From contig JBGALL010000001.1 of the NCBI GenBank assembly GCA_044223895.1, positions 27,506 through 91,505 on the forward strand: DNA of 64,000 nt. The letters are read 5' to 3'. Origin of the DNA: Candidatus Woesebacteria bacterium (GTDB lineage Bacteria; Patescibacteriota; Microgenomatia; UBA10105; UBA927). How positions within the stretch are numbered: position 1 is the stretch's first letter; each line of letters begins with the position of its first letter. Below, piece after piece: positions 27,696 to 58,584 of the stretch. The notes below the pieces were generated by a model that was not told where the DNA came from, made no database searches, and saw only the letters and a program-made list of their open reading frames with translations. Position numbers and translations under genes: made by a program.

Positions 27696-27707
27696 TATTA
27701 TTCTATG

Positions 27708-27778
27708 TGGACTCGAGGGGAATCGGACCCCTTTCTACTCCATGCCATGGAGTTATACTACCGGTGTACTACGAGCCC
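27708..27778 (-). tRNA. tRNA-Ala (anticodon GGC)
   Basis: The reverse complement folds as a cloverleaf: acceptor GGGCTCG/CGAGTCC with the G3:U70 Ala identity pair, and anticodon arm ACTCC-ATGGCAT-GGAGT. The T-loop reads TCCGATT (C at position 55, unusual). No encoded CCA. Confidence 0.8.
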
Positions 27779-27857
27779 TAAAGACTAAAGCCAAAGTGGT
27801 ACGCTATATTGTACTATAAATCTTCTTTACTTTCGAACCTAAATGTAAAATTCTTTG

Positions 27858-27930
27858 TGGACCTGAGCGGAGTCGAACCGCTGATCTCCGCAATGCGAAT
27901 GCGGCGCATTACCAACTGTGCTACAGGCCC
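27858..27930 (-). tRNA. tRNA-Ala (anticodon CGC)
   Basis: Acceptor GGGCCTG/CAGGTCC with G3:U70, anticodon arm CCGCA-TTCGCAT-TGCGG, canonical T arm AGCGG-TTCGACT-CCGCT. Confidence 0.9.
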
Positions 27931-46273: not shown

Positions 46274-47488
46274 ATGAGCGCAGAAAATCCCATTATCATC
46301 CCCGATTACACCAAAATCCTTGCCCTTCCTCCCGGGGAAATCAAATCTAGCCCCAAAATCGTACCAGAGGATGAACAACACTATCCAGATTACCTCCTCC
46401 CTTCAGCCATAAAGCTGGTAAATTATCTTGAACAATCATCAAAGATCTATGAGCAACTTATACAAAAACGTGAGATTACCGCCGATGATTTAGATAGTGC
46501 AATTAGTATTTACCCCTGGGAAGAGTCAGCAACCCAGATTAACCGTTATCAGATTGGCACTCAAATAGATTCGGGCGGATTAGGAGATGTGTTTATTGCC
46601 CAGGATACCTTACTAAATCAGAAATGTTGTATTAAAAAATTAAAAGCCGATAAAGCCAATGACACTAAATACCAGAGACTTTTCCTCCGGGAAGCTCTCC
46701 TGCTGATGGTTCTCGATCATCCAAACATTGTTCACGGACAAAATGTCTTTATTCATAAAGATGAGACATATCTGGTTATGGATTATATTCCAGACCCAAG
46801 TCTTCGTAAAAGAATTTATAGTGAAGGAGTTTTATCACCGGAACAAACCTTTGATGTGATCAAAGATGCTGCCAGTGCAATTGGGTACCTCCATAGTCGA
46901 GGTATAGTCTATAGAGATTTCAAAGCAGATAATTTACTCTCTGGCAATAAAAATATGTTAATAGATTTGGGAGTTTCTAGTGCTGTATATCCACATGATA
47001 GCAATACCCTTGTAGGAACAGTCGGATATATCAGCCCCAATGATTTTATAGATGATCCTTCAAAAGACGTACTCTCAATGGGAGCTACTATTTACGGAGC
47101 CTTAACAGGTGACACTGATGGACTTTTTACCCGAACTACCTTGGTAGATTCCTTAGCAACCGTAGGCCGAAGAGAAACCTTTATTCCCACAATCGGCAGA
47201 ATGACCTTAAATTTAAAGAATAAAGGCTACAATAATGCCAAGGATTTTGGTCTAATTATTGACAGAGCTACCCATCCAGATCAATTTAGCAGATATTCTT
47301 CCATGAATGAACTGATCAGTGCCTTTGAAATTGCAATCAAAAACAAAAAAGGAAAATCTTCGACCAGGAAAATACTCTATCCTTTAGAAGCAGTACCCCA
47401 ACCTGAGAATCAACCACAAACAATTATTTTTGACTTTGGGGATATGGGATCAACTTCTGGATCTAGCGTGGCAAACACCGGGGATTAA
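46274..47488 (+). CDS. Ser/Thr protein kinase (Hanks type) with ~95-aa N-terminal extension
   Basis: GGLGDVF, CIKKLK, HPNIV, YRDFKADNLL, DLG (DFG variant), GTVGYISPN. Confidence 0.85.
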   Translation: MSAENPIIIPDYTKILALPPGEIKSSPKIVPEDEQHYPDYLLPSAIKLVNYLEQSSKIYEQLIQKREITADDLDSAISIYPWEESATQINRYQIGTQIDSGGLGDVFIAQDTLLNQKCCIKKLKADKANDTKYQRLFLREALLLMVLDHPNIVHGQNVFIHKDETYLVMDYIPDPSLRKRIYSEGVLSPEQTFDVIKDAASAIGYLHSRGIVYRDFKADNLLSGNKNMLIDLGVSSAVYPHDSNTLVGTVGYISPNDFIDDPSKDVLSMGATIYGALTGDTDGLFTRTTLVDSLATVGRRETFIPTIGRMTLNLKNKGYNNAKDFGLIIDRATHPDQFSRYSSMNELISAFEIAIKNKKGKSSTRKILYPLEAVPQPENQPQTIIFDFGDMGSTSGSSVANTGD

Positions 47489-48924: not shown

Positions 48925-49806
48925 TTATTTTAATCTACCAAAGAAAAGTTGACCTGCTGCAGTCTGATGAACTTTGGAGAGAACAACCACAACGTCTAAG
49001 CCTACTTTGGTTTTTGCATCTTCCACAACTACCATCGTACCATCTGGGAGGTAGCCTACTCCTTGGGCACGCTCTTTCCCCTCGTGTGTTATCTTTACGA
49101 CAACTTCTTCACCCGGGATAAGCGACAATTTAATAGCATTTGCCAGATCGTTGATATTTAATACCCGAATACTTTCAGCTCTAGCCAATTGTGCCAAATT
49201 GAAATCAACAGTGAGAAGTTTGGTTTTCCATTGACGAGCCAAAGCAGCCAGTTTGTGATCGACTTCTTTTACCTCAGGAACATCATCTTTAATAATTTTG
49301 GTGACTAATAATTCATTTACTTTTTGGGTAGTAAGTTTATTAACAACCTCCAATCCCCGTCTCCCTTTGGCTCGACGAAGAGAATCGCTCGAATCTGCAA
49401 TATGTTGAATTTCTCCAAGAACAAACTCAGGGATTAATAAAGTACCAGCCATAAAACCACTATTGACGATAGGTAAAATCCTCCCATCGATAAGCACACT
49501 AGTATCCACCATAATCAGATTTTCCCCCTCTGGAGCTGGAATATCTTTTATTTGAATTATTGGAGTATCTTTTGCAAACGGTTTCAGACGCAAATTAGAG
49601 AAGCTAAGGTTTTTCACAATCTCTCTGGCAACCATGGCAGCAAATTCAGCGGCTGCCGCTGGCCGGAGGACTGTTTCTGATGAGGAAGGTTTTTTAACTG
49701 GTACCAATGTTTTTGATTCCTCTTTGGCTACAACTTTTTCAGCAACTGGTTTGGCGGGTGATGAATTTTTAGTCTCTTTTTTCTTACTAGAAAGGGATAA
49801 TTTCAT
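48925..49806 (-). CDS. PIN + TRAM domain protein (YacL-like)
   Basis: PIN-like MVDTSVLIDGRI..IPEFVLGEIQHIADS..RRAKGRRGLE, and a C-terminal TRAM-like beta domain (GEEVVVKITHEGKERAQGVGYLPDGTMVVV). The N-terminal 70 aa are low-complexity. Confidence 0.75.
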   Translation of the reverse strand: MKLSLSSKKKETKNSSPAKPVAEKVVAKEESKTLVPVKKPSSSETVLRPAAAAEFAAMVAREIVKNLSFSNLRLKPFAKDTPIIQIKDIPAPEGENLIMVDTSVLIDGRILPIVNSGFMAGTLLIPEFVLGEIQHIADSSDSLRRAKGRRGLEVVNKLTTQKVNELLVTKIIKDDVPEVKEVDHKLAALARQWKTKLLTVDFNLAQLARAESIRVLNINDLANAIKLSLIPGEEVVVKITHEGKERAQGVGYLPDGTMVVVEDAKTKVGLDVVVVLSKVHQTAAGQLFFGRLK

Positions 49807-50002: not shown

Positions 50003-50686
50003 ATGAAATACTCAAATAAAAAATCCTCACTCAGAGGACGTGCACTTCCAAAAAGTGCCTTATTGTTTATCGTTATACCTTTTATTCTTACTCTCATACT
50101 CGTATTTAACGTTGTCCAAAGCGATTCTATAGGTGATATAAGAAATCATGCAGCCTACCCAATTCCTACATCTAACCCTGTATGTGCTACGGGATGGCAA
50201 TGTGGAACTCAATGCGCGAGTACTGCCGATGTTAAACTGTTTAATTCGACCTGGTGTGATGGTAAATCCCATTGGCTGGCAGAATCTGCTGAGTCTCAAG
50301 GTAAACTTGCAAATTTTTGTGGAGGTAGTAAAAGCTCTCCCTCTACAGCACAAGGATGTCCGGTAAAATGTCCCACAGGAGCTACCTGTTTATCCCCATA
50401 TGTAATGTGTCAGGGCACAAAAAACACTCAAGTTAGGAATTGCACCTATAATGGAGGCACGGATGGATATTGTTGTAATCTGATTCCTCTGTGCACACTT
50501 TCGAAACGAGTAACCAATTCTTCTGGCTTTTGTAATACGAATTCCCCAAACACCTCTAATTGTGCAGGAAAACGAGAATCTTCTTCATGCACCTATACCG
50601 CCCAATGTGGAGGTGGTTCTGGACGGTGTGTTGTGGTCTCTCAAGGAGCAACCTCTCAATGTCAATGTCATCCGACTATGTACTAA
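50003..50686 (+). CDS. Secreted/anchored cysteine-rich protein (20 Cys in ~180 aa)
   Basis: N-terminal signal/anchor LLFIVIPFILTLILVF, then Cys-rich, Gly/Ser/Thr-rich sequence with no recognisable family. Confidence 0.55.
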   Translation: MKYSNKKSSLRGRALPKSALLFIVIPFILTLILVFNVVQSDSIGDIRNHAAYPIPTSNPVCATGWQCGTQCASTADVKLFNSTWCDGKSHWLAESAESQGKLANFCGGSKSSPSTAQGCPVKCPTGATCLSPYVMCQGTKNTQVRNCTYNGGTDGYCCNLIPLCTLSKRVTNSSGFCNTNSPNTSNCAGKRESSSCTYTAQCGGGSGRCVVVSQGATSQCQCHPTMY

Positions 50687-52002
50687 TCCAACAGTTTTCT
50701 TGCTTGTTGGAGACTTTTGACAACTCCGGGAGATATAGCAGTGGTATATCCTAATCGTTTTGATTCTTTACTTCGTCGCTCTTCCTGCGTAATCCTTCGA
50801 ACTTCTCCTAATAAACCAACTTCACCAAAGATTACTGTTTGTTTATCTACTGCTTTGTTGAGAAAGGAAGAGATAATTGCCATACAAACTGCTAAATCCA
50901 CCGCTGGCTCAGAAACAGAAATTCCTCCAGAAACATTGATAAAAATATCAAATCCTCCCAGAGGCATATTCAAACGTTTTTGGAGTATGGCAGTTAATAG
51001 CTGTAATCGGTTCTGATCAAATCCATTAGCAACCCGACGAGGAATCGCTAACTGGGTAGTCACTGTTAAGGCTTGAATTTCAACCAGTAGGGGCCGTGTT
51101 CCCTCCAAGATAACCGTTACCACTGATCCAGGAACATTGGTAACTCTGTCAGTAAGAAATAATTCAGAAGGATTTTTAACTTCGGTGAGGCCTTCTTCAC
51201 GCATATCAAATATTCCTACTTCTTCTATAGCTCCAAAACGATTTTTTAGCGTGCGTAAAATACGTGCGCTGGCAAACCGCTCGCCTTCAAAAAATAAGAC
51301 TGTATCGACCATATGTTCTAGGATCTTCGGGCCAGCAATACTTCCCTCTTTGGTAACATGACCAATAATAATTAAAGGGATCCCTTTTGACTTAGCAACT
51401 TGTACCAATTGCTCTGCACAAAAACGAATCTGCCCTACTGATCCAGCCATTCCTTCTAAATTATCTGATGATAACGTTTGTATAGAGTCAACGATTACTA
51501 CTGGAAGTTTAGTTTCAGAAGACGAAGAAATAGTATTGATAACTTCAATAATGGCTTCGACGTTAGTTTCTGGATAAATAATTATATTTTCACCAGCTAT
51601 TCCCATTCGAGCGGCACGGAGCTTAACTTGTTCTGCAGACTCTTCTCCGGCCACATAGATACCACCGATCTTGGAAATGATAGTAAGTAATAAGGTTGAT
51701 TTCCCAATTCCTGGATCTCCAGCTAAGAGAGTTACACTACCCGGGACAATTCCCCCACCCATAACCCGGTCAAATTCATCCAGATTACTTTTCAAACGAT
51801 TGGTTTCAATATGTTTAACCTGAGATAGTTTTTGTGGTTCCACTTTGGTACGTATCTGTGTCACGGCACTCGGCTTACCCTTCCCAGCATCTTTATTAAA
51901 TTCCACTAAACTACTCCAGGTGCTACACGAAGGACATCGTCCATACCACTGAGGACTCTCATACCCACACTGCTGACAGACAAAGACAGTTTTTCGTTTC
52001 AT
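50683..52002 (-). CDS. radA: DNA repair protein RadA/Sms
   Basis: N-terminal Zn finger CQQCGYESPQWYGRCPSC, Walker A GDPGIGKST, KNRFG motif, Lon-like C-terminal domain. The start is moved to ATG 52002. Confidence 0.95.
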   Translation of the reverse strand: MKRKTVFVCQQCGYESPQWYGRCPSCSTWSSLVEFNKDAGKGKPSAVTQIRTKVEPQKLSQVKHIETNRLKSNLDEFDRVMGGGIVPGSVTLLAGDPGIGKSTLLLTIISKIGGIYVAGEESAEQVKLRAARMGIAGENIIIYPETNVEAIIEVINTISSSSETKLPVVIVDSIQTLSSDNLEGMAGSVGQIRFCAEQLVQVAKSKGIPLIIIGHVTKEGSIAGPKILEHMVDTVLFFEGERFASARILRTLKNRFGAIEEVGIFDMREEGLTEVKNPSELFLTDRVTNVPGSVVTVILEGTRPLLVEIQALTVTTQLAIPRRVANGFDQNRLQLLTAILQKRLNMPLGGFDIFINVSGGISVSEPAVDLAVCMAIISSFLNKAVDKQTVIFGEVGLLGEVRRITQEERRSKESKRLGYTTAISPGVVKSLQQARKLLD

Positions 52003-52098: not shown

Positions 52099-52950
52099 TT
52101 ATTTCTTTATCTCTTTATGATGCTCATCAAAATCCACATGTTCTGGATCTACCGGTTCATTCATATCGTCTTCATTATAGCCATTGTAGTTGGAGAATAA
52201 TTCTTCCCCTTTGTGAATATCTTTCAGAGCAGTGAATAATAAGATATTATTTTTAAAACTTCTCCCAAAATAGACATTTGGCTGGTAGGAATGATTAATT
52301 AGTGCACCATAACCTAAACAGACAGCATTTTTTTGTTTGTTCCACTCAAAATAATACTTTCCTATCACCGTTTGATCCATATCTTTTTCTTCATTTCTTG
52401 GGAAGAAAACCACAGGGCATCGTTCAATGGTTTGACCTTCTTTTATATCTTCATCGGCAATAACTCCACGAATATTCAATGTTGGTGAGGTTCCTATAAC
52501 AAAGGGGAGATGAATACCTTTCTTGGAATGATCTGAACTATCTTGCTTAATTTTATGGAAGTGTTTATTACCATCTATCAATTCAGTGGGAATAGGATCA
52601 GTCCCATAAGGATTACCATTGTAGTTCACCTGTAACTCTTCTCCCGGTTGAATTGTCTTCAAAACTTTAAAGTTTAACGTATTGGCTTTGTAGTCAAATA
52701 TATATTGTATATTTGGTTCAAAGGAATGATTTACCAAACTCCCATATCCCAAAGCAATACAATGATATTTTTTGGTCCATTCAAAATAATACTTCCAAAG
52801 AACCGTATTTTTGAGGTATTTTTCCTGAGTTACCGGGAGAAACACCAAGGGACATCGCTCAGCAATACTTCCTTTTGGAATAAGCTGTGTAGCAATAAGC
52901 CCTCGAAAACCAAGGGTTGGAGAGATACCAACGGTGAATGGAAGGTTCAT
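52099..52950 (-). CDS. Tandem double SET-domain protein (putative lysine methyltransferase)
   Basis: Two ~130-aa repeats each carry the SET signatures GYGSLVNHSFEPN..GEELQVNY and GYGALINHSYQPN..GEELFSNY. The start is moved to ATG 52950, 24 nt after the rpsA stop. Confidence 0.8.
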   Translation of the reverse strand: MNLPFTVGISPTLGFRGLIATQLIPKGSIAERCPLVFLPVTQEKYLKNTVLWKYYFEWTKKYHCIALGYGSLVNHSFEPNIQYIFDYKANTLNFKVLKTIQPGEELQVNYNGNPYGTDPIPTELIDGNKHFHKIKQDSSDHSKKGIHLPFVIGTSPTLNIRGVIADEDIKEGQTIERCPVVFFPRNEEKDMDQTVIGKYYFEWNKQKNAVCLGYGALINHSYQPNVYFGRSFKNNILLFTALKDIHKGEELFSNYNGYNEDDMNEPVDPEHVDFDEHHKEIKK

Positions 52951-52973
52951 ACTGGACAGTTTGTAAGATGTGA

Positions 52974-54104
52974 TTATCTGTAACCGATTGGTTTTTCCAT
53001 CAAGGCCATGGAGAGAGAAATTTTTCTCTTTTCCGGTTGAACATCTTCTACAATACAAGTAATTTCTTCACCTTCTTTGGGTTCTTCACCAGGAGCTACT
53101 TTACTGATATGAATCAGACCCTCTACTCCAGGAAGCAAGGTTACGAAAATACCAATTGGGGTAACTCGTGACACCGTTCCTTTGACTTGTGATTCTTTTT
53201 CAAAGATATCAGTAACATTCTCCCAAGGATCTGGAAGTAATTGTTTGATGGACAAGGTAATTTTTCCACTTTCTTTGTCGACACCAACAACTTTAACTTT
53301 AATCTTATCGCCTTGTTTGATGTATTGAGATGCATCATCAACCTTTTCCCAGGCAATTTCAGAAATATGGATTAATCCTTCAACTTCGTGTTCCTTTTCA
53401 TCTTTGGTAACTGCAAATTTAGCAAAAGCACCAAATGGAACTACTGTTGTGATGGTGGCTTGAACTGTTTCATCAACTGGAACATGTTCTAAGAGATCTT
53501 TTTGCTTAGAGAAGGCTTCTGCTTCAGTCACAGCACGTTGTGAGAAGACAAGTCGATTACTATCTTTGTCTACCTCGACAACTTTTACTGATACGCGACG
53601 ACCAGAAACTTTATCTACCTGTTTTGAGGTCTGAGAATCCAACTGAGACATAGGAATATAGCCTCGAATACCATTGTATTCAACTAAAATTCCGCCCCGG
53701 ACAACTTCTCGGAAAACAACATCCACAGGAACCCCTGATTTCTGAGCTTCGGTAAGAGTTTCCCAACGACGATCAGTAATAAACTTACGAAGTGAAAGAA
53801 CTGATTGTCCCCGATCATTTTCTGGGACAATAACTTGAGCCATAACATGATCGTTCACCGCCAAACTCATGAGCATATCTTTATAAAACTCGAGTTCTCG
53901 ATCCATAACCACACCTTCGGCTTTACCACCGATATCGATTAAGATTTCGCGTGCGGTTACTTTGGTTATAGTTCCTTCAACAGTATCGCCTTTTCGTAAG
54001 CCCTTGAGGGTATACCCTGTATTCGCCAGTAATTCTTCCATCGAAGATGCTGCGGACGCTCCTTTCGTAGAGGTTGGGTTTGAGGATTGTTTTGATTTAG
54101 CCAT
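52974..54104 (-). CDS. rpsA: 30S ribosomal protein S1 (short, four S1 domains)
   Basis: Four repeats of the S1 OB-fold pattern (G..v.G.V..v....v.vd.g...G.ih.se). Confidence 0.9.
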   Translation of the reverse strand: MAKSKQSSNPTSTKGASAASSMEELLANTGYTLKGLRKGDTVEGTITKVTAREILIDIGGKAEGVVMDRELEFYKDMLMSLAVNDHVMAQVIVPENDRGQSVLSLRKFITDRRWETLTEAQKSGVPVDVVFREVVRGGILVEYNGIRGYIPMSQLDSQTSKQVDKVSGRRVSVKVVEVDKDSNRLVFSQRAVTEAEAFSKQKDLLEHVPVDETVQATITTVVPFGAFAKFAVTKDEKEHEVEGLIHISEIAWEKVDDASQYIKQGDKIKVKVVGVDKESGKITLSIKQLLPDPWENVTDIFEKESQVKGTVSRVTPIGIFVTLLPGVEGLIHISKVAPGEEPKEGEEITCIVEDVQPEKRKISLSMALMEKPIGYR

Positions 54105-54310: not shown

Positions 54311-54749
54311 AGATAAGACAGGCAGCAAGACCACAGGCGACGATGCGATAAATGAGATAAATCGTAGTGGTGGGCTTACTGCGGCAAACAAGAGAAATCA
54401 GTGGTCAGGCGTTATTTTCGCCGGAATCGATTGTCAAAAGCATCGCAAAAATCTTTCAAAGCATTGGGTGTATATACCCAAACCGCCGCGCGATTCTGTT
54501 CTTCCTTTTGACCAAATAAACTCTGAAACCACTTCTTCAATGCGTTCATCTTCAACCTCCGTGAAATATATTTGGAACACATTTTCTCTTAGACCTCTTT
54601 TAGAGATCACGTTCAGTTGTCTTACGAAAAAACACCTAAACGCGAGTTCCAAAGAGACCGATGTTAAAGAGCAAAATTAACTATAGGACTAGTATTGTAG
54701 CTCTACGAAGAATATTTTTCAAGAGGGAGCACAACAAGCCTTTAGGCAC

Positions 54750-54768: not shown

Positions 54769-54892
54769 CCCCCAGCCTTGACCTATCTTCCAATAGCCCG
54801 CGAGAGCTAAGTATTGTGGGCGCTAACGTGTTTCACTGCTGAGTTCGAGATGGGATCAGGTGGGACCACGTTGCTCAAAAGACTGGAAGACC
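54766..54892 (-). rRNA. rrf: 5S rRNA
   Basis: The reverse complement contains GGTCCCACCTGATCCCATCTCGAACTCAGCAGTGAAAC. Terminal helix GGTCTTCCAG/CTGGGGGACC. Ends are approximate (+/- 5 nt). Confidence 0.9.
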
Positions 54893-55048: not shown

Positions 55049-58282
<3,234 letters not shown>

Positions 58283-58511
58283 AAGGTTCGTCCGTTTTTG
58301 ACGAATTTTGTTCTGACGACTCAATTTACAATGGCATAAAAATAGAAGTAATTCTAAATGAATTACCCCTTTTAGATGCAACTACTCATTTAATTTTTCA
58401 ATTCTTACTGTATTAAAGTGTTAAAGAGCAATGTTCAGATGTATGAATTAATAACTGAAATTAACTAATTAATTTTCAGATATCAATTCATAATATCGAA
58501 CTATGTAGCGG

Positions 58512-58584
58512 TGGACCTGGGGGGAGTCGAACCCCCTACCTCCTCATTGCAAATGAGGCATTCAACCAGGTAAACTTCAGGCCC
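58512..58584 (-). tRNA. tRNA-Ala (anticodon UGC) upstream of the 23S
   Basis: Acceptor GGGCCTG/CAGGTCC with G3:U70, anticodon arm CCTCA-TTTGCAA-TGAGG, T arm GGGGG-TTCGACT-CCCCC. Confidence 0.9.

Follow-up and report, generated by a model that had tools for sequence, protein, structure and literature searches.

This study examined a gene encoding a tandem SET-domain protein on a 64,000-nucleotide stretch of the genome of an uncultivated Candidatus Woesebacteria bacterium (assembly GCA_044223895.1, contig JBGALL010000001.1, positions 27,506 to 91,505), hereafter called the window. The gene lies on the minus strand between an rpsA-like gene and radA (Table 1); the downstream radA was absent from the first-pass annotation, which had been made from the sequence alone. 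In the list of open reading frames (ORFs), a long frame runs from 53058 to 52099. It contains an ATG at 52950 and ends with a stop codon at 52101-52099, and this ATG was preferred as the biologically sensible start because all homologues open with an equivalent M-x-L-P-(F/I)-T-V-G and an identical 283-residue protein is already recorded on an NCBI contig.

Each half of the protein is a complete SET domain. Pfam SET (PF00856) matched in two stretches with 107.7 bits (cut-off, 22.4 bits; E = 4.9e-31), and the NHS..PN and GEEL..NY signatures that the first-pass annotation had read in both copies are indeed present in both: NHSFEPN at residues 74-80 and NHSYQPN at residues 219-225 (NHS at 74-76 and 219-221), with the Tyr of GEEL..NY at residues 110 and 255. 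Its estimate by eye of about 45% identity between the repeats was also close, as residues 1-145 and 146-283 share 46% identity across 140 residues (E = 2e-45). The N and H of NHS are invariant in five of five double-SET orthologues. The two Tyr residues, likewise invariant in orthologues, align with the Tyr of ISYGDDY in the viral enzyme vSET, whose Tyr105 is presumably the catalytic residue. Upon alignment, the residues for catalysis and for binding of S-adenosylmethionine (SAM) were found in both modules. With a hidden Markov model built from the halves of family members, each half scored approximately E = 2e-65, a value that includes the effect of this protein's own halves in the training set. 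The modules comprise about 125 residues each and, as read from the sequence, carry neither a Cys-rich pre-SET or post-SET flank nor an inserted I-SET. The flank of the C-terminal tail (PVDPEHVDFD.HHK) is kept in the alignment of the closest orthologues. A Pfam scan of the whole protein returned SET only, together with a sub-threshold match to the PR domain, and no Rubisco-LSMT substrate-binding domain.

The AlphaFold2 model, built from 15 sequences, contains two beta-rich SET folds, with a mean predicted local distance difference test (pLDDT) score of 78.4 and a predicted template modelling score (pTM) of 0.72. Thus, both the profile search and the structure prediction that had been proposed for the two halves in the first-pass annotation agree with its SET assignment. 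In the N module, the block means are approximately 74-94 up to about residue 110 and drop toward the linker; residues 126-141 of the linker and 268-283 of the tail fall below a pLDDT of 50 and are predicted to be disordered. For a two-domain chain with 32 disordered residues, a pTM of 0.72 exceeds what would be expected of 125-residue domains oriented at random, which suggests that the orientation of the two domains is fixed in the model. When solved structures were searched by sequence, Set7 of Schizosaccharomyces pombe was the best match (E = 1.9e-14, C half), and vSET matched the N half (E = 4e-7). A Foldseek search of the PDB placed Set7 (5h6z), vSET (3kma), and Plasmodium PFL0690c first, followed by the SET domains of MLL, SETD8, SUV420H, and EZH2; every top match was a SET enzyme, with a probability of 1.00. 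The Kyte-Doolittle profile (19-residue window) has a maximum of 1.06, so the protein contains no hydrophobic segment; because, in addition, its first residues (1-20) belong to the folded domain as a strand, it carries no Sec-type signal. The predicted protein therefore appears to be cytoplasmic in character. A defence or phage origin was considered and set aside: PADLOC gave only a chance-level match to "orphan methyltransferase" (E = 0.0011 over 34 residues), and the PHROGs matches were limited to two families of unknown function.

The first-pass annotation described the protein as an internal duplication, a description that proved misleading. The two halves are 55% identical at the DNA level and 42% identical at third codon positions; together with the 46% amino acid identity, these values indicate that the repeat is real but old. 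In 100 bootstrap neighbour-joining trees of 45 domains, the four N halves grouped together in 91 trees and the four C halves also in 91, and the N and C halves formed an exclusive clade in none. The N halves grouped in 63 trees with the singles of loci L007-L010 and the single SET of locus L087, which occupies the same slot after rpsA in a sister lineage; the C halves joined the L087 single in no tree. Either half shares 48-54% identity with single-domain representatives, a value that equals or exceeds the identity between the halves. A recent internal duplication is thus ruled out, and the fusion appears to join two long-diverged paralogues, with old divergence or paralogue fusion as the favoured history. 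Among orthologues, identity is 61-76% for the N halves, 55-80% for the C halves, and 32-45% for the linker. Since both halves are similarly conserved and the linker is not, each half seems to be under its own constraint. The halves also differ in isoelectric point (8.5 versus 5.2) and in the strand that follows NHS (IQYIFDY versus VYFGRSF), each version being conserved within its own orthologues. Such diverged halves would fit two distinct specificities.

An exhaustive HMMER search was performed against 1.84 billion cluster representatives to investigate the distribution of the family, and it returned 2,935 relatives at E <= 0.001. A pattern scan confirmed 396 loci in species-representative genomes, mostly single genes encoding approximately 125-135 residues. 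The earlier statement that bacterial SET proteins are uncommon therefore fails for this family. Its hosts, which are mostly free-living bacteria and archaea, include Saprospiraceae, Anaerolineae/Aggregatilineales, Bacillus/Fictibacillus, Planctomycetota, Myxococcota, several groups of the candidate phyla radiation (CPR), Woesearchaeota, and Promethearchaeota. When the three neighbours on either side of 60 loci were clustered and representatives were scanned with Pfam, no universal operon partner was found. Synteny was lineage-specific only, involving an LptC-like gene and asnS in Saprospiraceae, Uma2 in Anaerolineae, and a nucleotidase in Fictibacillus.

Paired and fused SET genes recur in this family. 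Adjacent pairs were found in Promethearchaeota (L014, L022, L026), Dethiobacter (L024), and Patescibacteria (L041), and fused doubles in Bacillota (L023:5016-5798, L033:5070-5825) and Myxococcales (L028:5118-6020). At one locus (L001:6383-7585, GCA_964405085.1), a single-SET gene of 131 codons and a double-SET gene encoding 266 residues are separated by 7 nucleotides, which places three SET domains in a row; rpsA is not nearby, and genes of the Fic, Uma2, and histone-deacetylase families lie within 5 kb. The more distant double-SET protein P0005, 43% identical to that of the window, is likewise encoded outside the S1-SET-RadA arrangement, after a third, single SET gene and close to Fic, Uma2, and deacetylase genes. 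Among 154 scanned proteins (the top 150 representatives plus the close relatives of the query), 27 contain at least two SET domains. In roughly half of these 27, one domain has lost the NH and/or the Tyr and the other is intact. The first copy is degenerate in L023, in L033, and in the adjacent pair of L024 (4950-5768), with NCS or NSS for NHS and VNR or VKR for VNY; the first copy is likewise degenerate in the Myxococcales fusion (L028_N), and one degenerate copy is also present in P0137, P0143, P0147, P0162, P0174, P0189, P0231, and P0281. Both domains are intact in the window protein and its orthologues and in P0148, P0155, P0167, and P0176, and the pairs of Promethearchaeota (Asgard) retain the motifs except for L026b, which has NNS for NHS. 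A dead copy kept beside a live one is what would be expected of an obligate dimer, and vSET is homodimeric. The recurrent pairs, fusions, and degenerate partners thus suggest, at the level of sequence, that the dimer is the working unit of minimal SET enzymes; given the size of the family as well, a SET:SET dimer may be the ancestral one.

The literature that could be searched held nothing relevant on tandem or double SET polypeptides, on SET proteins in CPR bacteria, or on SET pseudoenzyme heterodimers. Bacterial SET domains and minimal dimeric SET enzymes are already known. The tandem SET-SET chain and the pairing of live and dead copies in prokaryotes were not found in that literature; the architecture is nonetheless common in sequence databases.

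For the gene upstream of the SET gene, the best NCBIfam matches are all named "30S ribosomal protein S1", the top one scoring 289 bits under a cut-off of 368 bits, and its homologues are named ribosomal protein S1 or S1 RNA-binding protein of Patescibacteria. Because the best S1 models match below their cut-offs, it was considered a short, CPR-type S1. The first-pass annotation had placed the SET gene 24 nucleotides after the rpsA stop on the same strand; the shared strand was right (it is the minus strand), and the distance is 23 nucleotides. A terminator scan found none in this spacer, as had been claimed; the nearby matches lay only inside the SET coding sequence, and their total was not above the expectation from shuffles. 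With a same-strand spacer so short and free of terminator-like sites, the co-transcription with rpsA proposed earlier is plausible. A promoter scan of the region gave fewer matches overall than shuffles did; a putative rpsA-SET-radA transcript could begin at the match located upstream of rpsA, next to the 5S gene. The radA gene starts 96 nucleotides downstream of the SET stop on the same strand. In the homologous locus L002, the SET stop codon and the start called for radA overlap, which suggests possible translational coupling of the two genes. Homologues of the PIN-domain gene, which we take to resemble YacL, directly follow radA in L002, L087, L089, and L091; the TRAM match is faint and was obtained in a homologue only.

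Table 1. Features of the double-SET locus in the window, and contents of the slot after rpsA in related genomes (S1 identity is to the S1 of the window)
Feature	Position or locus	Strand	Evidence or description
Tandem SET-SET gene, 283 amino acids	52099..52950 (including stop)	minus	ORF translation; Pfam SET in two stretches
N-terminal SET module, residues 1-125	52576..52950	minus	NHS at 52723-52731; catalytic Tyr110 at 52621-52623
Linker, hydrophilic, residues 126-145, DGNKHFHKIKQDSSDHSKKG	52516..52575	minus	low pLDDT, low conservation
C-terminal SET module, residues 146-270	52141..52515	minus	NHS at 52288-52296; catalytic Tyr255 at 52186-52188
C-terminal tail HVDFDEHHKEIKK and stop codon	52099..52140	minus	pLDDT <50 at residues 268-283
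Spacer from rpsA stop to SET start, 23 nucleotides	52951-52973	minus	no terminator-like site, no obvious Shine-Dalgarno sequence
rpsA-like gene, 376 amino acids, four S1 domains	52974..54104	minus	PF00575, 153.6 bits, 4 stretches
radA/sms, 439 amino acids from ATG 52002 (ORF extends to GTG 52062)	50683..52002	minus	TIGR00416, 540.8 bits (cut-off 403)
PIN-domain gene, third of the rpsA-radA-PIN cluster	48925..49806	minus	homologues carry Pfam PIN (weak) and TRAM (faint)
Sigma-70-like promoter match, TTGAAA-17-TACAAT, between 5S gene and rpsA	54694..54722	minus	consensus scan, 10/12 positions
5S ribosomal RNA, immediately upstream of rpsA	54770..54887	minus	Rfam RF00001, 71.2 bits
23S ribosomal RNA	55053..58276	minus	Rfam RF02541, 2236.8 bits
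tRNA-Ala(TGC), precedes 23S	58510-58584	minus	ARAGORN
Double minimal SET after rpsA	window, L002-4, L006, L005		S1 identity 81-100%
Single SET after rpsA, 133 amino acids	L087/L088		S1 identity 86%
Same-family SET, cut by contig end	L157, L159		S1 identity 79%
SET of a different subfamily after rpsA, 255 amino acids, single domain	L158:4462-5229		S1 identity 76%
Class I (Methyltransf_11-type) SAM methyltransferase, 271 amino acids, between rpsA and radA	L091:7184-7999		S1 identity 75%
Slot empty	L089/L090		S1 identity 76%
Slot empty	L160		S1 identity 79%
Cargo: 225-residue family without detectable homology	L092:3563-4240, L093, L095, L100, L102, L129		6 loci, sister CPR clade
Cargo: 23S-rRNA-intervening-sequence protein	L101:5128-5478, L110, L115, L117		4 related loci; PF05635, four-helix bundle
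Cargo: aminotransferase	1 locus
Cargo: EamA transporter	1 locus
Cargo: several unknown proteins	various loci

Several further observations concern the surroundings of this cluster. No 16S gene was found in the window, and protein ORFs begin right upstream of tRNA-Ala(TGC), so the 16S gene appears to be unlinked. The 23S match spans 3,224 nucleotides against a model of 2,925 positions, which implies approximately 300 nucleotides of insertions; no intron family exceeded its Rfam threshold. A Cys-rich ORF of 227 codons with an N-terminal hydrophobic segment and no NCBIfam match (50003-50686, plus strand) lies convergently between radA and the PIN/TRAM gene. It represents a second cargo insertion in the cluster, because the gap between radA and the PIN gene is only about 70 nucleotides in L002. 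Farther away, the window contains an ORF of 404 codons that resembles a Ser/Thr protein kinase by eye (46274-47488, plus strand; HPNIV, YRDFKADNLL, DLG) and two tRNA-Ala genes (GGC, CGC) about 80 nucleotides apart (27707-27930, minus strand).

The order S1-SET-RadA(-PIN) is kept beside the closest double-SET homologues (74%, 73%, and 56% identity), which come from independent samples. The linkage of rpsA to a SET gene is not unique to one genome, as it recurs in at least seven other lineages, again from independent samples. However, the order rpsA then radA is itself conserved, down to an S1 identity of 37%, with a gap of 7-133 nucleotides in approximately 20 loci and clade-specific cargo in others (Table 1). 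In the S1 tree, each type of cargo is restricted to its own clade, and SET genes occupy the slot only within a single narrow clade, defined by an S1 identity of at least 75% to the window, where 8 of 11 lineages have a SET gene after rpsA. By contrast, at the 80 other family loci examined, there is no S1, RadA, or PIN/TRAM gene nearby. We interpret the position behind rpsA as a cargo site within an ancient housekeeping cluster, open to many unrelated genes, and place a single gain of the SET gene at the root of a clade of genus or family rank. Thus, the linkage to S1 that the first-pass annotation had taken as a pointer to function is real and recurrent, but as functional evidence it is weak, given a conserved rpsA-radA pair, a promiscuous slot, and no such linkage at the other 80 loci.

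A search for a hidden methyltransferase or acetyltransferase in the 225-residue family gave no Pfam match even at E <= 5 and no PDB profile match below E = 0.3. In the lineages whose slot holds the 23S-rRNA-intervening-sequence protein, the rRNA genes are found immediately upstream of that slot.

Taken together, the gene product is predicted to be a cytoplasmic, SAM-dependent protein-lysine methyltransferase consisting of two minimal SET modules joined by a flexible linker of about 20 residues. Members of this family may work as dimers in the manner of vSET, which is reported from its crystal structure to be a homodimer of subunits packed side by side. On this view, the fusion would be a pseudo-dimer in which the link is covalent and both active sites are live, and its heads probably target either two distinct lysines or two copies of one oligomeric substrate. 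Read-through from rpsA may supply the transcript of the SET gene, which lies in a long-standing CPR cluster of 23S-5S-rpsA-radA-PIN/TRAM. Such a neighbourhood would set expression, which may be constitutive and linked to growth, and would not name the substrate. As a best guess, the latter would be an abundant nucleic-acid-binding protein of the cell itself, or several of them, from the nucleoid or from the ribosome and translation, with no preference between these groups. This guess was made because the only prokaryotic SET proteins with known internal substrates methylate chromatin proteins: Go1-SET acts on MC1-alpha and cpnSET on Hc1, both endogenous (PMC3980110). For the whole of this explanation, that is, a covalent pseudo-dimer lysine methyltransferase carried as positional cargo with an endogenous nucleic-acid-binding substrate, we estimate a probability of roughly 0.55.

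Some observations weigh against this explanation. One of the eight SET genes in the slot belongs to a different subfamily (L158, with NHSCMPN, EELTVHY, a post-SET CxCxxxxC, and an unassigned C-terminal region of approximately 130 residues), and in another lineage a class I methyltransferase gene takes the same position (L091). These two cases look like retention or replacement of a methyltransferase function, which would mean some tie to the operon and not a purely positional relationship. Elsewhere, family members also adjoin genes of transcription and translation: a single SET gene lies between a GNAT acetyltransferase gene and nusA-infB in a metagenome-assembled genome (MAG) of Paceibacterota (L007:3823-8230), and in a MAG labelled Pseudomonadales a 4-nucleotide overlap joins the stop of the SET gene to the start of greA (L086:1454-2349). 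In addition, BaSET of Bacillus anthracis was reported to be secreted without a signal sequence, so the missing signal is not strict proof against export (PMC3980110).

The methyltransferases in the slot and the neighbours elsewhere would suit a form of the first role proposed in the first-pass annotation, a dedicated modifier of S1, the 30S subunit, or the translation machinery that is made with S1 on one transcript and whose two heads serve the repeated S1 domains. The short, terminator-free spacer, the linkage in at least eight lineages of the S1 clade, the non-orthologous SET (L158) or class I methyltransferase (L091) that fills the slot in sister lineages, and the relatives at nusA-infB and greA all point in this direction, and in eukaryotes ribosomal proteins are substrates of SET enzymes, yeast Rkm1-4 among them. 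However, rpsA and radA form an ancient pair whose junction is a general cargo site, the slot carries no cargo in two lineages inside the clade (L089/L090 and L160), and the wider family shows no attachment to S1, RadA, or PIN genes at the 80 other loci. The Rubisco-LSMT-type domain of the Rkm enzymes was not found in the Pfam scan, which returned SET only. Housekeeping neighbours are also expected by chance in small CPR genomes, and by our estimate three to four such contexts in approximately 16 lineages are not clearly enriched. A dedicated modifier of this kind is therefore considered unlikely. A related proposal, in which the slot of this one CPR clade is kept filled by a methyltransferase (a single or double minimal SET, the second SET subfamily, or a class I enzyme) that acts on S1 or the 30S/translation apparatus during its production, and in which the two-headed form is a covalent dimer whose diverged active sites mark two different lysines, for example in the repeated S1 domains, seems somewhat less likely still.

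A regulator of the nucleoid or of DNA transactions, which would methylate a small basic DNA-binding protein (HU or histone-like) or the co-expressed RadA or PIN/TRAM protein, is about as doubtful as the dedicated S1 modifier. It is favoured by the fact that the sole characterised endogenous substrates of prokaryotic SET proteins are chromatin proteins, by the histone methyltransferases among the closest solved relatives, and by the stop/start overlap with radA in L002. However, no candidate substrate gene was linked to the SET gene in the family neighbourhoods examined, and the adjacency to radA, with a spacer of 96 nucleotides in the window, is as weak as that to S1.

The least likely reading, and a very improbable one, is the effector role raised in the first-pass annotation, in which the protein would be secreted to methylate histones or other proteins of the host or partner cell of an episymbiotic CPR bacterium: although characterised bacterial SET proteins are mostly effectors, BaSET being exported without a recognisable signal, and the nearest structures act on histones, the protein has no signal peptide or hydrophobic segment, its sole NCBIfam match is the AnkI/LegAS4 effector model NF043024 at 18.5 bits against a cut-off of 550, no meaningful PADLOC or PHROGs context was found, the gene sits within a housekeeping cluster of rRNA genes, rpsA, and radA, and the family is spread among free-living Saprospiraceae, Anaerolineae, Bacilli, Planctomycetota, and archaea. 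The CPR hosts known to us are, moreover, prokaryotes without nucleosomal histones.

The covalent pseudo-dimer carried as positional cargo thus remains the preferred explanation. The role of SET methyltransferases in free-living prokaryotes, bacterial and archaeal, has been a standing question ever since these enzymes were first found outside eukaryotes, and, to our knowledge, functional work on prokaryotic SET proteins has dealt almost entirely with pathogen effectors. The locus gives a clean structural hypothesis and no direct evidence for a new mechanism. Fusions of this type may serve as natural covalent dimers, here with both heads predicted to be live, for structural and substrate-trapping work, and the rpsA-linked clade provides a short list of candidate substrates: S1, the 30S proteins, RadA, and the PIN/TRAM protein. 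A ribosomal substrate would make this a new, SET-based type of bacterial ribosome modification that was previously unknown; with any other substrate, the locus is a clear example of a cargo hot spot in a conserved CPR housekeeping operon.

Among known systems, vSET (A612L of Paramecium bursaria chlorella virus 1; 1n3j/3kma) resembles the modules described here in its minimal core of approximately 120 residues without pre-SET or post-SET zinc clusters, in the NHS..PN and GEE..Y motifs, and in its fold (Foldseek template modelling (TM) score, 0.86 on the target), with an identity of only about 26%. It differs in being a viral, single-domain, non-covalent dimer specific for histone H3K27, whereas the window protein fuses two diverged domains in a bacterium without known histones; a histone H3 substrate would not be expected in a CPR bacterium. 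Set7 of S. pombe (5h6z) is the best match in both sequence (approximately 34% identity, C half) and fold (TM score, 0.79-0.80) and shares the YxFxW and LGxGSxxNH motifs with the window protein; unlike the latter, it is eukaryotic and single-domain, is described as a histone methyltransferase, and has no described tandem form.

Go1-SET of Methanosarcina mazei and cpnSET of Chlamydophila pneumoniae offer a precedent for an internal substrate; the likeness drawn here is one of described function. Both are single-domain proteins, and those of the cpnSET type have motifs like nuclear-localisation signals and are considered effectors of type III secretion systems. The effectors RomA/LegAS4 of Legionella, NUE of Chlamydia, BtSET of Burkholderia, and BaSET of B. 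anthracis have the SET catalytic domain in common with the window protein, and BaSET is likewise small and without a signal sequence. In contrast to the window protein, whose gene has no secretion-system context, these SET effectors are larger, comprise several domains, and carry signals for secretion or nuclear localisation. The Rkm1-4/LSMT-type enzymes combine SET with a Rubisco-LSMT substrate-binding domain, whereas the window protein consists of SET only.

The minimal SET proteins of other prokaryotes, single or paired and annotated as "SET domain-containing protein-lysine N-methyltransferase", belong to the same family with 40-57% identity. Among the SET proteins encoded after rpsA, that of L158 has a post-SET Cys cluster of a kind that the modules of the window protein lack, and that of L087 is a single SET in the same rpsA-radA slot as the double SET of the window. 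Most family relatives are likewise single proteins of approximately 130 residues, and many of the fusions retain one degenerate copy, whereas both copies are intact in the protein described here.

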